In this document: piece after piece, positions 7,447 to 42,683 of the stretch
Position numbering within the stretch: the first letter of the stretch is position 1
Layout: the number at the start of each line of letters is the position of its first letter
Source of the DNA: Oscillospiraceae bacterium
Lineage (GTDB): Bacteria > Bacillota_I > Bacilli_A > RFN20 > CAG-826
Direction: 5' to 3'
Assembly (NCBI GenBank): GCA_963644615.1
Contig: CAVIPP010000002.1
Span: forward strand, 1-42,861
Length of the DNA: 42,861 bases
Notes under the pieces: generated by a model
What the model was told of the DNA's origin: nothing
The model's database searches: none
The model's input: only the letters and a program-made list of their open reading frames with translations
Made by a program: the position numbers and the translations under genes

Positions 7447-8057
7447 TAAAATAGACTTTTTGTGCTGTCCGAGTTCCAATGATCTGGATGAACGATTGGG
7501 TCCACATAGAAGAAAATATTTTTAAGCATCAGAACGTCTGCCAAGGCATCATGCGCGCCGGCGCTGCTAAAACCCAATGCCTCCGCTACTAGGGTTAATC
7601 TCCATTTTCGACCAAGTTTATCTTTTAAACCAAAAAGGTTTTGTTTTTTTGCTATTGCAATGCAATCATAATAACCATCAATGCCAGGAAAAACTTCTTT
7701 ATTAAAATAATTATAAGGTATCTTTAATACTTTGCATCGCTCATTTAACATTGGACGGTCAAAAGCTTCACCATTATAAGTTAACACTACATCAACTTCT
7801 TGTTGTTTCATCCAACAGCAAAAATCTATCAATACTTCTGACTCAGGGCGACAATTAATTAAATCCTTTGCATAAATGCCATGGACTTTACTAGCATCAG
7901 GATCAATTTTATGAGTAGTTCTAATTCTTTCGTTAAAACTATCTATTATGTTTCCCTTTTCGTCACAAATGAGCGCGGCGATTTGGACAGGTGCGGCGCT
8001 ATTCCAGTAAACGCTAGTGGTTTCTGTATCCAATATACATATTCTTTTATATCCCAT
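7446..8057 (-). CDS. DEDDh 3'-5' exonuclease (DnaQ / Pol III epsilon-like)
   Basis: ILDTETT (Exo I), YNGEAFD (Exo II), HDALADV (Exo III). No in-frame TGA; 4 Trp, all TGG. I prefer the ATG at 8057 (AGAGG RBS) over the track start at 8096. Confidence 0.85.
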   Translation of the reverse strand: MGYKRICILDTETTSVYWNSAAPVQIAALICDEKGNIIDSFNERIRTTHKIDPDASKVHGIYAKDLINCRPESEVLIDFCCWMKQQEVDVVLTYNGEAFDRPMLNERCKVLKIPYNYFNKEVFPGIDGYYDCIAIAKKQNLFGLKDKLGRKWRLTLVAEALGFSSAGAHDALADVLMLKNIFFYVDPIVHPDHWNSDSTKSLF

Positions 8058-36301: not shown

Positions 36302-36396
36302 TGGCAGGGGTGACAGGAATCGAACCCGTTCGAGCCCGGGTTGGAACCGGGTCGGCGGTTTTGAAGACCGCTGTGCAGCCACTACACTACACCCCT
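36302..36396 (-). tRNA. Opal-decoding tRNA (anticodon UCA), tRNA-Trp-like, with an atypical 25-nt extra arm
   Basis: Minus-strand sequence: AGGGGTG TA GTGT AGTGGCT GCAC A GCGGT CT-TCA-AA ACCGC [CGA CCCGG TTCCAAC CCGGG C TCG A] ACGGG TTCGATT CCTGT CACCCCT G CCA. The acceptor stem is 7 bp with A1:U72, the discriminator is G73, and CCA is encoded. The T-loop is TTCGATT and the anticodon loop is CU-UCA-AA. Acceptor and anticodon arms closely resemble E. coli tRNA-Trp as I recall it (AGGGGCG..., CCGGUCUCCAAAACCGG). Confidence 0.9.
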
Positions 36397-36745
36397 ATCT
36401 TGTTTTATGATAGTGCTTGATTTTGCGTCTCGCGATGGTTGTTTTACGAGCGTATGGTATAAGACTAATATTATAACCATGCGGTTGCAAGGTATTTAAT
36501 TTTAGAATCCAGTAACGTTCCTGGTCATTAAGTTTAGCGATGGGACAAAATTCAAGCACATCAAAACGAAATCCATGGTTGTCTTTATTTCAGTCGGCTT
36601 GCATTAGTTTATTTTCATGACAACCTTTTCTTAATGCTGTAAAATGTTCTTTTTTACGATGATAAACATTTTTACTTTGACCGACATAAATCTTGCCGGT
36701 TTTTAGATTTGTTATTTTATAGATACCAGCAAGAGATAAAGTCAT
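36395..36745 (-). CDS. Free-standing GIY-YIG endonuclease (116 aa)
   Basis: GIYKITNLKTGKIYVGQS...R..H...LRKGCHENKLMQAD-TGA-NKDNHGFRFDVLE...ERYWI...GYN. It has one in-frame TGA, at the aromatic position of the L-x-x-x-(F/W)-N-K motif. The TAG stop (36395-36397) overlaps the first nucleotide of the tRNA. Confidence 0.85.
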
Positions 36746-37087: not shown

Positions 37088-37684
37088 TTATTTACAAGGC
37101 TTCAAACCGTACTTTTTTTGCATAAACTCTAAAAATCATGTTTCAATATCTTCTGTTTTTAGTCCTCATGCGCTTAAACCGCGGGGATATTTAATACCAG
37201 ATACTGATGTAATTTGACGAATATGTCTGACATTTACGTGCAACATTATTCCGCAACAAGAAAAATAAAGTCCTGGTCATGCCAAATTTTCGCTATGAGT
37301 GCCAAACTTAAAGTATTTATCATCTTTATTATGAACTAACATATCATGATGCAATTCTGTCAATTCATGCCCAAGTTGTACATCAACATTGCGCTCATGA
37401 AGTTTTGCAGATAAGAAGTTTCATCAATTAATAAAGAAATTATCCTTTTCAGTAGAGTAGTGATAAATAATAATATCACCTTTTTGCATAACTACACAAC
37501 CACCTGGCACAATCAAAGGCAAACGGGAAATGTGCATACGATTCATTACATTAATATTATATTTCTTTTGTGGACTATTGCCATGGAAAGCATATTCCTT
37601 ATCTAATACAATATAATATGTGTCTTGCGGTTTTCCATGGGTAAGCATTTTAACGCCATCATCTATGCTAATTTTCTTTAACAT
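37088..37684 (-). CDS. Hypothetical protein (198 aa)
   Basis: ATG 37684 lies 1 nt after the dUTPase TAA. I translated it: 5 in-frame TGA, including the tandem pair at 37421-37426, and TAA at 37088. The track ORF 37424..37747 is its N-terminal part with a spurious upstream extension. Confidence 0.65.
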
Positions 37685-37685
37685 A

Positions 37686-38174
37686 TTATTTACCTGAACT
37701 GCCCAATTTTCCCGCACCGCGTTCAGTATCAGTAGACCATTCTTCATTAGAACACTCTCTACTTTCTACTGTTGGCATCTCGACAGGAATAAGCTGAGCA
37801 ATAGCTTTGCATGCTGGATAATAAAAAACTTTAAGGGCTTCATCAAAATAAGGTTTATCCATTGCACGCGTAATAACAACTGGGTAATCGTTGTCATTTT
37901 TAATGCAAATAAAAATAGTTCCTCTGTAATCTTTATCAATAACTCCGCAATGGACATGCATTCCGCGAGAACCTGTTGAACCTCGATCAAATGCCATTAA
38001 CCAATAGTTCCCCTCAATTACAACTCCTAAACCAGTGGAAAAAAGGAATTGGCTATGTGGTTCTAAGCGGACAAAATCTTCAATTGTATATACATCATAT
38101 CCTGCGGCATCTTCTTTCTTCGTTGGAATAACCGCATTAGACTTAAATTTAAACCATTTTAATTTACAATCCAT
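37686..38174 (-). CDS. dut: dUTPase (trimeric dUTPase/dCTP-deaminase fold)
   Basis: AAGYDV, GSTGSRG, GVIDKDYRG and C-terminal ERGAGKLGSSG motifs. No TGA. Confidence 0.85.
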   Translation of the reverse strand: MDCKLKWFKFKSNAVIPTKKEDAAGYDVYTIEDFVRLEPHSQFLFSTGLGVVIEGNYWLMAFDRGSTGSRGMHVHCGVIDKDYRGTIFICIKNDNDYPVVITRAMDKPYFDEALKVFYYPACKAIAQLIPVEMPTVESRECSNEEWSTDTERGAGKLGSSGK

Positions 38175-38770
38175 TATAAATCTCCTTTAAAAGTATCATT
38201 TATTACTAATTCTTCATCTTTATAATTCTCTTTAATAAAGTTTAATACTCATTCTTCTACTTGTCAAGATTTTATATCCCAATTAGATAAACCGGAAGGA
38301 ATCTTTCAAGAAGGTTTTGTGCTACAAAACTTTGCACGCCACTTGTTGTCTGTGATAGAGACATGCATAAATGAGAGATTACGACCGTCAACTAAGCGGA
38401 TTTTTGCGCACCCAGCTACTTTATACTTTCCATCAATTAAAATATCATTATCTTTATTACAAGCATTGATGCCTTTTTCTTTTAGTTTTTCAATTAAATA
38501 ATCATTTAATCTAGTATTAAAATGTTCATTAGAAGGTCGAATGGCAACAATAGCAAAATCATTTCTTGAGAATAATATTGGACCTCCTTCACGAGGATAA
38601 TATCAAGTAGGAATTTTTAATACTTCACAGGCGATATCATTTACATATCCTTCCTTTCCTACACTTAATAAAGTTTTTTGATGTATGCCGCATAAAAAAC
38701 CGCACTCTGAGGTGTTAATCCAGGTGTCAAGTTGTTTTATAACTCCTTCAAAAGTATCTTTAATAATCAT
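38174..38770 (-). CDS. Lipoate/biotin protein-ligase-family (LplA/BPL-like) domain protein (198 aa)
   Basis: AAAGGAG RBS and ATG 38770; 4 in-frame TGA. NDILIDGKYKVAGCA resembles the LplA/BirA NDLLxxGKKIxG motif. Its TAA overlaps the dut ATG (TAATG). Confidence 0.5.
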
Positions 38771-38868
38771 AAATTATTACTCCTTTAATAAACAGCAATC
38801 TGAGATAAATCTGATGTCAATCAGATAGATGCATCTTCTTCGCGAACAGAATGCGCAACAGGAAGCTT

Positions 38869-40290
38869 TTTACCTTGAAAAACCGCCACTTTGTTGTCAC
38901 GATAGGCTAATTTTTTATCATGTCGTTCATTATCTTCTAATTCTCATTGTGAGTTCTTGTAATTATTTATAGTATAAGATATCATCGGTCCATAAAATTC
39001 AGTTCATCTGTTAGTAACGAAACTAGCCGTTATATCTTGTTTACGATAAAGGTCATGTATTTTTTTAGATAATGTTGGTCTCATTTCGTTAGGATAAACT
39101 AATTTTATTTCACTTGCGGTCATTACAAGGCTTTGTGCAGTATATTCTGGTGTATTTTTAGTCGCTTCAACGAAGAAGTCATGAAAAATTCTAGTGGCTC
39201 ATTGTTTAACCTTTGTTTGAACTCCTGAATCTGATGAGCTGATCGCCGCAGTAGGAGTTTGATTTCATCATTTTGCACTTGGAATGCCACTTGCCTTTAA
39301 ATCAACTAATTGAGAAAAGCTTAAAGTAAGTGCGCGACCACTAGTAAAAGTATTTTTAGTAAAAAGTTCATTAATATATTTATTTATATCTGTTGTAGTA
39401 GGATGCTGACTTGCGTACATTCTTATTCGATAACTAAAACTATCTGTGATGGTTTTGGCAATAGTATCTTGAATACCATTAACTCGTCTTAAAACTAAAT
39501 TCATCGTTGGAACATTTATTTTAAGATACTTTTTTAATTCTTTACTAAATTCAACTCATGCTCCTGTTTGAGTTTGAGGGTCTCAAAACCATTTTGTTGT
39601 TTGCTCTCCAATAAATTCCCTTCAAGTTTTCTTTGTAGACTTCTTTAGATTAGCAGAAAACATCTTTTGTAAGTCTTGCCAATAAGAACTATTTTTTAAT
39701 CATTGCGCAAAAAATTGATCGATATTGCTTTGTAATTTTCCTAATTGTAAATCTATATAATCTAAAACTCTTAATGCTTCGGCAGGAGTAAAAGATCTTT
39801 GTAATATTAAAGTATCCGGAGCGCTGGCCAGACATCAACCATAATATTGACCACCCATTTCAGCATTAACTACCTTAAAACCTTGTTGTCTTGAAGCATA
39901 GGCTATATGTAATATTTCTGCGGCATCGAGCTTCATTAGTTCGTCATAAACAAAATCCTGTTCTATTTCATTTACTATTGCATTATTCTTTGTGTTCTTA
40001 GTTGTCAAAGGAGAAACACGTTTACCATAGGGTCTCAAATTCTTAAAAAACTCTTTATAAGTCTGTTCATCAAAACCATAATTAGGTTCTGTATATATCT
40101 TAAAAGATATTTCATTTAAGTTATGACTACGAATGGCCTTTAATAAATCAGGCTCACTGGTATCTTGTCCTGTATTTTTATAGGCAGCATAAATATGCGT
40201 GCGAACACGACTAAAAGAATCATTATCTGATGCGGCCGACTGCCCAATATAACATTTATTCCCGATTGTAATATAATATATATATTTCAT
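38869..40290 (-). CDS. GIY-YIG nuclease domain fused to a ~320-aa domain of unknown function (473 aa if TGA is sense)
   Basis: KYIYYITIGNKCYIGQS...AEILHIAYA...VVNAEMGG form a complete GIY-YIG domain that ends at TGA 39835. I translated onward in the same frame, through track ORF 39268..39504: 10 in-frame TGA and no TAA/TAG until 38869. No RBS or ATG supports a separate downstream gene. Confidence 0.7.
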
Positions 40291-40313
40291 ACTTTACCTT
40301 TTATTATAGTAAT

Positions 40314-40340
40314 AAAAAAGTAGAAGAGCAAATCTTCTAC
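40314..40340 (-). terminator. Intrinsic terminator directly after the structured RNA
   Basis: gtagaaga (40320-40327), 5-nt loop, tcttctac (40333-40340); a 6-nt T-run follows on the minus strand. Confidence 0.7.
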
Positions 40341-40348
40341 TTTCGGTA

Positions 40349-40660
40349 ATTATCTCATTGTAGACTTGAACTACTGAGTCCGTATCCTAATGGACAGCTT
40401 ATTCTCCTTTTGATCTCTTGTGTGCGGAGTCTTTGTCGTACGGCCTTTCGGTTGGTCGAGTTTGGAGATAACTTACCCGGAGGTTCGCTACCACACTGCT
40501 CGACCTGACTCTAAAACCACCCACATTGATTTCCATTCCGACTTCACTGACTAGGAACTTCGTTCACTCCTCACGATCCGACCTCTCTGTGCCGATAGGG
40601 GCAGGTTGCGGGCCCGATCCATCATCCTACCACGAATAATGGAGTCCCCCATGAGATAAT
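40349..40660 (-). ncRNA. Unclassified ~310-nt GC-rich structured RNA; strand inferred from the terminator and flanking genes
   Basis: G+C is visibly near 50% against roughly 30% in the flanks. A 10-bp closing helix joins 40651-40660 to 40349-40358. There is a T-arm-like hairpin GUAG-UUCAAGU-CUAC (40360-40374). Nested long-range helices include GGUCGAG/CUCGACC (40499-40505 with 40454-40460) and GAGUC/GACUC. A CC-GAAA-GG tetraloop hairpin is present. It starts at the nucleotide after the GT2 stop codon. No ORF with local codon usage. Confidence 0.6.
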
Positions 40661-41740
40661 CTAAATAAATAAATAAGAACTAGTATCTAATGAATATTTT
40701 TCATCAATGTATTGAAGATAATCATTCCATAGTATTTTTTCCATTGTAAAGTGAAATTTTTTACTAATATCTGTGCGACATTGAGAATATCAATAAGCAC
40801 GCTGACGATTCGTTGTATTTTTTACTGTTTTTCCAAAGTTAATAACCATTTTAACGAATAATTCTTCTAATTGTTGATATTTAAATCGAGTATTTTCATT
40901 AGTTAAATCTTGAAAATCGTCAGAAGAAATAATTAGGTATGTGAATACCATTGATATTATAAGCAACTCATCTCATCTTCTGCAATTTTGGTAAGAAGGG
41001 AAAAGAGCCTCTAAAACCGCGTAAGTCGAAGCAATATAGTCATCAGTATTCCAATACATGTATGTTTTACCATCATGATTCCAACGAGAAGTTACGCTAT
41101 TTGGATTTCTTTTTCATAGGTAAGCATTAATTGGCAAATGAATTGCATAAGAAGCAGGAGCAGATAAGCCTACTACTTTGCCAAAATAAGTGTCTTCAAA
41201 GGTTCTTAAAGATGGATGAAATTTAATATTATGTTGTTTAATAAAATCTCTATTTCATACTTTGCCATGCATCCAAATCATTGATGGTTGATTATGAGGA
41301 TATAAGAAATATCCTTTATCTTCTGTTATTTGTTCTTCTAAAAAATCGCACCATATATAATTTCAAGGTTGATGTTTAGCTTCTAATGAACGAATCTCAT
41401 TTAATATCTTCATCAATACGGTTGAGTCGTATAATTGATCGTCCGCATCACAGAACATTATATAAGGTAAATTAGTATGATCCATACCACATTGCCGCGC
41501 CAAACCAGCACCACCATTCTTTTCTGTTTGTATTACCTCAATAGGAAAAGAAAAGTTATGAAGAAAATCCTCTGTTAATTCCCTTCTGCCGTTTTCGTCC
41601 GCATCGTTGACAATGGTGACTTTGATAACTTTATTTAAGTTTAATCCTACTTGTATATTTATAGAGGAAAGTAAATGACCTATTACTTCTTTCTTTTCTT
41701 GATAATGCGGAATAATTATATCTAAACAAGGTAAAGTCAT
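40661..41740 (-). CDS. Family-2 glycosyltransferase (GT-A fold, 359 aa)
   Basis: IIIPHYQ...VNDADENG...MFCDADD (DxD). Track ORF 41363..41740 extends in frame; I translated it fully: 5 TGA (41363, 41255, 41114, 40973, 40790) and TAG at 40661. Confidence 0.8.
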
Positions 41741-41759: not shown

Positions 41760-42683
41760 TTAGTTTTTAAGATTAAGATTTTTAATAATATCTAACGCAG
41801 CTGCGGCGCCATCTCCGCATGCAAGCACAATTTGTTTATATGGTTTCGAAGTGCAGTCTCCAACCGCATAAAATCTTTCAAGGGATGTGCGGCCGCAAGG
41901 TTGAGTTATAATAAAATCTTTATCATCTAATTGTATATCTTTAAAGTCTTTAAGAATGGCGTTATTTGATTTTTGTCCTATTGCGATGAAAACGCCATCA
42001 ACAGGCATAGAAAATTCTTTCTTTTCTTTCTCATTGCCTAATGTTAAACGTCCTTTTACTAACATGCGGTCTTTATCTTGTTCAAAAGAACTAGTAAACC
42101 AGAACGGCACTATTGAAAGCTTTTGTTCTTCTTCAAGTTGTCTAATTGCATCTTTCCATTTTTCTTCACCGAACAAATTATTTGTAAGTGTTAATAAAGA
42201 TACATGTTTTACATATTCACTCAAAGCGATAGCATATTGCATTGCACTATTGCCATCACCAATCACTGCCACGTCTTTATCTGCGTAAAGAGGTCCATCA
42301 CAAGTCACGCAATAATGTATATGATCGAGATCTTCACCTGGCACCTTTAATTTTAAATGTTCACTGCCGGTTGCCCATATAAGGTATTTTGATTCAAAAA
42401 CCGCCGCTTCAGTGTTAACCCGTAGACCATTTTTAAGCTTGGTGATTGAAATTACTTCACCAAAAATAAAATCTATGTCTTGTTCAATAGGATTAAACAT
42501 TTCTTCTGCTAATTGAAAACCACTGCCGTTAAAGCCAGGATAGTTTTCTATATAAGGTGCTTTAGACATATTACCGCCAATAACATCTTTTTCTATAATG
42601 GCTACTGTCTTTTTGGCACGTCTTAAATAAATGGCCGCAGTAATTCCCGCAGGACCTGCTCCTACAATAATTACATCATACAT
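41760..42683 (-). CDS. trxB: Thioredoxin-disulfide reductase
   Basis: VIIVGAGPAG (FAD), CVTCDG redox-active dithiol, VIGDGNSA (NADPH), AVGDC. No TGA; 3 Trp, all TGG. Confidence 0.85.
   Translation of the reverse strand: MYDVIIVGAGPAGITAAIYLRRAKKTVAIIEKDVIGGNMSKAPYIENYPGFNGSGFQLAEEMFNPIEQDIDFIFGEVISITKLKNGLRVNTEAAVFESKYLIWATGSEHLKLKVPGEDLDHIHYCVTCDGPLYADKDVAVIGDGNSAMQYAIALSEYVKHVSLLTLTNNLFGEEKWKDAIRQLEEEQKLSIVPFWFTSSFEQDKDRMLVKGRLTLGNEKEKKEFSMPVDGVFIAIGQKSNNAILKDFKDIQLDDKDFIITQPCGRTSLERFYAVGDCTSKPYKQIVLACGDGAAAALDIIKNLNLKN

Follow-up and report, generated by a model that had tools for sequence, protein, structure and literature searches.

Contig CAVIPP010000002.1 (assembly GCA_963644615.1, an Oscillospiraceae bacterium) raises the question of what a structured RNA is doing immediately before a long open reading frame (ORF) that is encoded on its own strand. 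The stretch analysed here, which we call the window, comprises 42,861 nucleotides of AT-rich phage DNA (31.8% GC), and the initial annotation suggested that the RNA and its neighbour could be either an RNA-assisted nuclease or a mobile cassette bracketed by short repeats. Our analysis indicates that the RNA is the founding example of a new structured-RNA family, undescribed according to Rfam 15 and literature searches, and that its tight association with a family of divergent GIY-YIG-like proteins is real and likewise undescribed by these measures. The features of the locus are as follows.

40348 to 40662, minus strand: structured RNA of 315 nt, 45-50% GC (window, 32%).
40652 to 40662, minus strand: 5′ arm of the closing helix P1 (AGAUUAUCUCA), overlapping the TAG stop codon (40661-40663) of a family-2 glycosyltransferase (GT2) gene.
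40604 to 40657, minus strand: conserved 5′ domain, in which helix P3 surrounds hairpin P2; the P2 loop, GUGGUA, occupies 40628-40633.
40348 to 40358, minus strand: 3′ arm of P1 (AUGAGAUAAUU), forming 11 bp with 40652-40662.
40310 to 40344, minus strand: predicted intrinsic terminator between the RNA and the ORF, with a 12-bp stem (40316-40344) followed by a U-run.
38785 to 40290, minus strand: gene for a 501-aa protein (genetic code 4), with a GIY-YIG-like N-terminal domain and a C-terminal region of ~350 aa.
39841 to 40290, minus strand: the divergent GIY-YIG-like domain, aa 1-150.
38801 to 38812, minus strand: third copy of the short repeat, coding for S-D-L-S-Q near the C-terminus of the 501-aa protein; not a boundary.

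The adjacency noted in the initial annotation therefore stands: the GC-rich element at 40348-40662 lies upstream of the ORF start at 40290, and an AAAGG ribosome-binding site and the ATG follow approximately 20 nt past the predicted terminator.

Homologues of the RNA were found in 11 lineages and range from ~125 to 415 nt in length. Designating relatives by locus number, these lengths are ~125 nt in L259, 135 in L009, 150 in L017, 165 in L133, 205 in L059, 315 in the window and 415 in L004. They share a common plan, in which a −10-like box 4-7 nt before P1 is followed by P3 enclosing P2, a centre of variable size, the 3′ arm of P1 and a terminator or U-run. The P2 loop reads GUGGUA, changing to GGUGGUG in the most divergent types. 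Model R1, a covariance model built on the 5′ domain, gives scores of 31-63 bits for family members and no more than 27 bits for anything else in 565 kb of fetched DNA, and detects a single copy in the window (46.4 bits, E = 2.4e-11).

Several lines of evidence show that this fold is maintained. Pairing holds in 84.9% of the cells of the R1 alignment, and at five pairs both sides have changed, although these counts lean towards structure because the alignment was fitted to the model. The covariation score of 0.344 compares with 0.172 for shuffled alignments, none of 500 shuffles scoring as high, and sliding the partner columns reduces pairing to 33-58%. P1 is paired over 7-11 bp in all seven lineages examined despite its differing sequence, with compensatory changes between L004 and L059. 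The corresponding arm in L001 is AGAUUGUCUCA, where an A to G change produces a G·U pair that fits only an RNA of this strand, and a strand-specific G·U change is also found in P1 of L262 relative to L009. Divergence between the window and L001 is 6.0% in the RNA but 16.4% at third codon positions, the latter taken over five neighbouring genes, so that the RNA diverges 2.7 times more slowly; pairing survives all four of the substitutions located in predicted base pairs. We conclude that the RNA is conserved, covaries in P1, P2 and P3, and is under purifying selection, far beyond what chance would give.

Comparison with described RNAs returned no counterpart. The window RNA and three relatives gave no Rfam match at the gathering threshold or at E ≤ 10, and for three family members this covered RNase P, SRP, 6S and Y RNAs, riboswitches and T-boxes. 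A tmRNA or tRNA-like identity had been prompted by a UUCAAGU loop and the long closing stem, but ARAGORN and Rfam were negative for it, and the 3′ hairpin is not kept in L059 or L133; ARAGORN's sole call in the window is a tRNA with anticodon UCA (36302-36396), and the Rfam tRNA and tmRNA models were silent on the RNA. Searching the literature with strings of the RNA sequence returned nothing relevant.

We then asked how closely the RNA follows the protein. Starting from the protein, the RNA is present in every lineage for which upstream DNA is available (window, L001/2, L003, L004-6, L009/10, L017, L259 and L260). Across all 11 lineages, in which protein identity falls as low as 23-30%, it shares the strand of the protein gene and precedes it by 15-400 nt. 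Starting from RNA patterns alone, the protein gene is found at each of the five loci whose downstream flank is long enough (L058, L059, L133, L262 and L263). The loci came from two scans: a 16-nt motif scan of JGI metagenomes gave 120 loci, among which the only true members were L058 (the L004 contig), L059, L131, which ends at its contig end and so does not cover the region downstream of the RNA, and L133; a two-part pattern of the L009 type identified two IMG/VR contigs (L262 and L263), both with a small ORF, the protein gene and dUTPase downstream. The first RNA patterns used against IMG/VR gave nothing, or chance matches only (L014-L016). Thus the RNA and the protein occur together from both search directions.

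The surroundings of the pair are less constant. The gene upstream of the RNA may be GT2, in either orientation, or encode a protein of 88, 112 or 185-197 aa, and a downstream 198-aa gene is present or absent by lineage. The RNA, the nuclease-like gene and dUTPase stay together, with dUTPase syntenic in every locus that reaches that far. All of these relatives are one clade of TGA-recoded phages from gut and rumen-type metagenomes.

In five lineages a further, conserved small ORF of 61-98 aa (MLRxDIE...HVVDRKKDIWG...) is interposed between the RNA and the nuclease-like gene (L004 1144-1389; L003 3902-4147; L059 ~409-651; L009 1865-2074; L260 1883-2092; L262/L263). The window, L017, L133 and L259 lack this ORF, for which Pfam and PHROGs gave no match. 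A strong sigma-70-like promoter is predicted before it in L003, L004 and L059, and an ordinary −10 box in L009 and L262/3.

The protein had been described as a 473-aa polypeptide with a complete GIY-YIG nuclease domain. The length required correction, since translation with code 4 gives an ORF of 501 aa at 38785-40290, and the domain assignment held in part. Pfam searches (PF01541 or related families) with the window protein, eight close and ten distant homologues gave no hit in any of the 19 members at E cut-offs from 0.1 to 10, although the same search recovered the neighbouring 116-aa protein as PF01541 (E = 4.6e-10). The 501-aa protein also had no match in PHROGs or in PDB sequence-profile searches, and Foldseek comparison of the whole protein and of the N-terminal domain with the PDB gave nothing at E < 1.

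A relationship emerged on profile-profile comparison. When a 60-member N-terminal profile was compared by hhalign with the small GIY-YIG proteins of these phages, a family that Pfam does verify, the match had a probability of 93.8% (E = 1.7e-7; 58% and E = 1e-4 with a 10-member profile), aligning YIY with GIY, YIGQS with YVGQS, R28 with R30 and H32 with H34. Y5, Y14, G16, Q17, R28, H32, E125 and N142 are near-invariant across 60 full-length members. E125 is kept in 59 of the 60 and N142 in 50, but both follow an insertion of ~50 aa and hhalign does not align them to the reference Glu and Asn. AlphaFold2 (AF2) models (predicted local distance difference test, pLDDT, 71-73) have a β-β-α-α-β-α-α order, and Foldseek searches of BFVD gave weak matches (E 0.01-2) enriched in annotated GIY-YIG or intron-associated endonucleases. 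We therefore accept, from sequence comparison, that the N-terminus is probably a very divergent GIY-YIG-like domain carrying a ~50-aa insertion, and infer that it may be catalytically competent.

The protein resembles the I-TevI and Seg homing endonucleases in its Y-I-Y, Y-I-G-Q-S, R, H, E and N motifs, in the predicted β-β-α-α-β-α order of the catalytic domain and in its phage setting. In contrast to them, it is twice the usual size, has the insertion within the domain and no Pfam hit, and its 350-aa C-terminus is unrelated, with no NUMOD or helix-turn-helix (HTH) match. Furthermore, it is present in all relatives, and the adjacent RNA is no group I intron and interrupts no gene.

No relatives of the C-terminal ~350 aa could be detected beyond the protein's own family. 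Its end is conserved family-wide as W-L-T-x-x-L-S-Q-I-x-V-Y (W-L-T-S-D-L-S-Q-I-A-V-Y in the window), with W490, I498 and Y501 invariant. A word-indexed search recovered eight homologues (35-97% identity), all metagenomic and full length, and an exhaustive profile search extended the family to 87 representative clusters at 50% identity, mostly full-length proteins of ~480-630 aa. DNA and protein searches of GenBank phages found no match; a scan of IMG/VR proteins found none with the single sequence and one locus, L017, with the alignment. In L001, but not in the window, a 21-bp tandem duplication (ACTGTCTATTAAAGGAG...; ~7495-7535) covers the nuclease-like gene's stop codon together with the ribosome-binding site of the gene after it.

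The constancy of the pair invites the idea that the 501-aa protein, through its C-terminal ~350 aa, binds the RNA as a cofactor, scaffold, substrate or inhibitor. In keeping with this, the two are adjacent in 11 of 11 lineages while the upstream gene varies and the downstream 198-aa gene comes and goes, and neither relatives nor fold matches point to a different role for the C-terminal region. However, dUTPase is linked just as tightly, so that linkage does not single out the RNA; the predicted terminator parts the RNA from the gene, and no recognisable RNA-binding domain was found. We therefore regard such a partnership as doubtful. To our knowledge no structured RNA accompanies a GIY-YIG protein, and a literature search for GIY-YIG-associated RNAs found none.

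GIY-YIG enzymes are often homing endonucleases, and near-identical 11- and 12-mers stand at both ends of the pair: the plus-strand string TGAGATAATCT at 40652-40662 and TGAGATAAATCT at 38801-38812. It had been proposed that the RNA and the nuclease gene form a mobile cassette with these repeats as its ends; in a related form, a homing-endonuclease gene would travel with an intron-like RNA. The string at 40652-40662 and its inverted copy are indeed there, and are the two arms of the 11-bp closing helix. The distal copy exists as sequence, but instead of falling past the gene, as had been claimed, it lies inside the ORF, in conserved codons. Moreover, the initial annotation's own caution that an 11-mer may arise by chance was well placed: allowing at most one edit, the window has four matches compared with 3.84 ± 1.86 in Markov-randomised sequence, and the expectation is 1.65 matches if up to one mismatch is allowed. 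In L001, which is 94% identical, the P1 copy is altered but the coding copy intact, and in none of six further lineages does the local P1 sequence recur (at most two edits) within 100 nt of the gene end. Since the third copy is coding and at chance level, the 'bracketing repeat' reduces to a helix plus a coincidence: two copies are the P1 arms and the third is a chance match inside the ORF.

Nor does the wider context suggest mobility. The gene occupies the same place in all relatives and is not sporadic, synteny with dUTPase is fixed, and no GT2-dUTPase junction lacking the pair was seen among the relatives. We also considered a group I intron carrying a homing-endonuclease ORF within it, and rejected this, as no Intron_gpI or group II model matched, the GT2 gene ends with its own stop codon and the downstream gene has its own ribosome-binding site and ATG. 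We conclude that the block is vertically inherited and is not a mobile cassette, and consider an element bounded by the 11-mers to be extremely improbable.

The second proposal was an RNA-assisted nuclease laid out like IscB with its omega (HEARO) RNA; taken literally, the RNA would carry a guide that directs the GIY-YIG enzyme to DNA targets. The likeness lies in the arrangement: a structured RNA of a few hundred nucleotides (here 125-415), immediately 5′ of a nuclease-like gene, on the same strand and conserved together with it. The protein, however, is GIY-YIG-like and has no RuvC, HNH or PLMP domain by Pfam, the RNA gives no Rfam HEARO match, and in place of an IS200/605 context we find a fixed syntenic phage block, vertically inherited and without visible transposon ends. 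The anatomy of the RNA argues in the same direction. Its 5′ and 3′ ends are sealed within P1 in the seven lineages examined, with no guide overhang; a putative −10 box ~5 nt upstream leaves no 5′ guide, and the predicted terminator or U-run that follows at once leaves no 3′ guide. Where the RNAs of the window and L001 differ, the changes are spread out and form no guide-like block. The proposal has thus fared poorly: RNA anatomy disfavours a guide mechanism, and an OMEGA-type system in particular seems very unlikely.

What the arrangement of signals does suggest is a transcription unit that begins with the RNA. Boxes resembling the −10 element (TATATT, TATACT or TATAAT) are found 4-7 nt before P1 in L003, L004, L017, L059, L133, L259 and L262, and predicted terminators or U-runs follow P1 in L017, L133, L009, L259, L260 and L262/3 in addition to the window. 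In the window, L017, L133 and L259 the putative signals fall in the order promoter, RNA, terminator, ribosome-binding site and ORF on one strand, as in an attenuator, with the terminator 15-30 nt before the ribosome-binding site of the nuclease-like gene. In L133 and L259 the Shine-Dalgarno sequence comes directly after the U-run and leaves no intervening room for a promoter, and a homologous terminator precedes the gene even past the small ORF (GGCAAGA...UCUUGCC, L017 compared with L004). Taken together, the lack of promoter room and the homologous terminator suggest that expression of the nuclease-like and dUTPase genes probably depends on read-through.

We favour, with a probability of roughly 55%, the interpretation that the RNA is a free-standing, end-paired and stable molecule forming the promoter-proximal part of a conserved block, in which the terminator merely attenuates the downstream genes. 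Transcription of the RNA would be driven by a −10 box of its own, ~5 nt before P1, and the terminator after P1 would release a discrete, end-paired, stable RNA while limiting or gating the nuclease-like gene by read-through. The order of the block would then be promoter, P1-closed RNA, sometimes a small ORF, terminator, the ~500-aa GIY-YIG-like gene and dUTPase, and the RNA would have no OMEGA-type guide role.

Several observations weigh against this interpretation. The promoters and terminators are predicted at the level of consensus sequences, and the window's −10 box is recognised only by alignment to the relatives. L003, L004 and L059 have no terminator after P1 and a strong sigma-70-like promoter before the small ORF, so that the unit is not uniform. 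In the window and L017 a possible −35/−10 pair overlaps the terminator, which means that the nuclease-like gene may have a promoter of its own. Public collections were scanned by exact patterns only, by which protein-less copies of the RNA could be missed, and co-occurrence could reflect synteny alone, as all loci belong to one phage clade; within a single clade of broadly conserved gene order, ancestry-based and functional linkage are inseparable in these data.

The principal rival reads the same signals differently, and takes the RNA to be a cis-regulatory leader of the nuclease-like/dUTPase mRNA that senses a ligand, a protein or a tRNA, or modifies RNA polymerase in the way of HK022 put, and so decides termination. 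Riboswitches, T-boxes and HK022 put leaders share with the locus a promoter, a structured RNA, an intrinsic terminator and the ribosome-binding site of the next gene, and the U-run-to-start-codon distance of 15-30 nt in the window, L017, L133 and L259 is consistent with such a role. In L009, L133 and L262 the U-run comes directly after the 3′ arm of P1, so that termination would depend on folding of the whole RNA, and the homologous terminator found before the gene even where a small ORF intervenes also fits a leader. In addition, the UGGU loop, like the T-box bulge, is complementary to a tRNA ACCA end. However, no Rfam riboswitch, T-box or leader family matched, and no conserved antiterminator/terminator alternative was identified by inspection. 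A range of ~125 to 415 nt is unusual for an aptamer, the UGGU loop stands in the 5′ domain far from the terminator, the central region varies greatly in size, and in three lineages a strong promoter and small ORF part the RNA from the terminator. We consider a leader function less likely than a free-standing RNA.

One lead as to what the RNA might recognise came from ribosomal RNA. The first ~120 nt of the L003- and L004-type RNAs (L004 634-750; L003 3394-3510, by pairwise alignment) align to nt 2093-2195 of E. coli 23S rRNA with ~62-64% identity. This segment coincides almost exactly with the L1 stalk, helices 76-78 (nt 2093-2196 in the standard numbering). The alignment score of 140 compares with 97 ± 11 for shuffled sequences, none of 200 shuffles scoring as high, and against 119 bacterial L1-stalk regions the mean local scores for L003 and L004 were 100.9 and 95.5, compared with 64 ± 6 for shuffles (z ~5-6 for the stalk regions; 3.5-6 over the tests together). 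The signal is weaker for L059 (z = 2.6), and the window RNA (z ~0), L017, L133 and L009 are indistinguishable from shuffles. An nhmmer L1-stalk profile, the Rfam LSU model and model R1 run against E. coli 23S rRNA gave no match, so that the idea rests on the pairwise alignments of a single lineage. Neither helix 76 nor helix 77 appears to be preserved: by inspection L004 keeps three of the five H77 pairs and L003 has lost them, and P2 and P3 pair other segments. The heptamer UAGGAUA matches the first T-loop region of the stalk, and is kept in the window, L001/2, L003, L004-6, L017/L131, L059 and L133 but not in the L009, L259, L260 and L262/3 types. We treat the apparent L1-stalk resemblance as a lead and not as a finding.

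The L1 stalk carries an interdigitated T-loop module that docks the tRNA elbow (PMC4919913). With a T-loop module of this kind and the UGGU loop, the RNA might be a tRNA- or uL1-recognising device that gates the terminator or, alternatively, the RNA subunit of a GIY-YIG ribonucleoprotein; we offer this as speculation and think it improbable. In the tRNA-sensing form the phage TGA-suppressor tRNA, for example, would gate read-through into the TGA-rich nuclease-like and dUTPase genes. A separate stretch of the window RNA (40472-40494, minus strand; GGUAGCGAACCUCCGGGUAAGUU) resembles 23S helices 70-71 (nt 1929-1956; GGUAGCGAA..CGGGUAAGUU); this candidate was rejected, as shuffled sequences score alike.

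The block sits in a phage genome that reads coherently only with genetic code 4 (TGA as Trp): ORFs of at least 100 aa total 14,182 aa with code 4 and 8,697 aa with code 11. Almost all genes of the window lie on the minus strand, where the order is thioredoxin-reductase-like gene, GT2, RNA, 501-aa ORF, 198-aa ORF and dUTPase. The neighbouring genes are listed here.

41760 to 42683, minus strand: thioredoxin-reductase-like gene.
40661 to 41740, minus strand: GT2 gene, ending at the TAG stop codon; 5′ neighbour of the RNA.
38174 to 38770, minus strand: 198-aa ORF between the 501-aa gene and dUTPase.
37686 to 38174, minus strand: dUTPase gene.
36395 to 36745, minus strand: bona fide small GIY-YIG protein of 116 aa, the PF01541 match described above.
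36302 to 36396, minus strand: tRNA(UCA), labelled tRNA-SeC by ARAGORN; its variable arm is long and its 3′ GCCA is encoded in the gene.

The tRNA(UCA) is presumably the TGA suppressor of this code 4 phage, and a suppressor tRNA(UCA) is also found in L001 (9916-10010), L003 (8349-8443) and L011 (3990-4085). The 116-aa GIY-YIG gene lies directly upstream of it, a pairing that is syntenic in the same three loci; a small GIY-YIG gene occurs in L004, L133 and L259 as well. Two paralogous ORFs of ~200 aa (38174-38770 and 37088-37747, both on the minus strand) flank dUTPase, with the same pair in L011, and a protein of L003 that is possibly related to them has a weak LplA-B_cat match.

Other large RNAs are known from phages that carry tRNAs. 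Like ROOL and GOLLD, the new RNA is a GC-rich, conserved and covarying non-coding RNA in such genomes, but it matches neither in sequence or structure, is smaller (125-415 nt) and is strictly linked to one protein family. A full-length ROOL RNA is present in L017 (1750-2338, plus strand; RF03087, 204 bits, E = 7.5e-45), where it precedes the new RNA by ~1.4 kb and is embedded in 1.5 kb of non-coding sequence; no ROOL match was found in the window.

In practical terms, the repeats at this locus should not be read as element boundaries, nor the block as a mobile cassette. The findings add a structured RNA family from stop-codon-recoded phages, a poorly understood group, and link it one-to-one with a previously unannotated family of ~500-aa proteins (87 clusters at 50% identity) that is apparently a very divergent GIY-YIG lineage. 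If the link is functional, whether as a ribonucleoprotein or as a leader, it would broaden nuclease-associated RNAs beyond those of IscB, TnpB and Cas proteins. Were the resemblance to the L1 stalk functional, this would be a viral RNA exploiting the tRNA-docking module of the ribosome, and if the RNA proved to be a tRNA device or part of a GIY-YIG ribonucleoprotein, it would represent a T-box-like sensor or an RNA-nuclease partnership new to phages.

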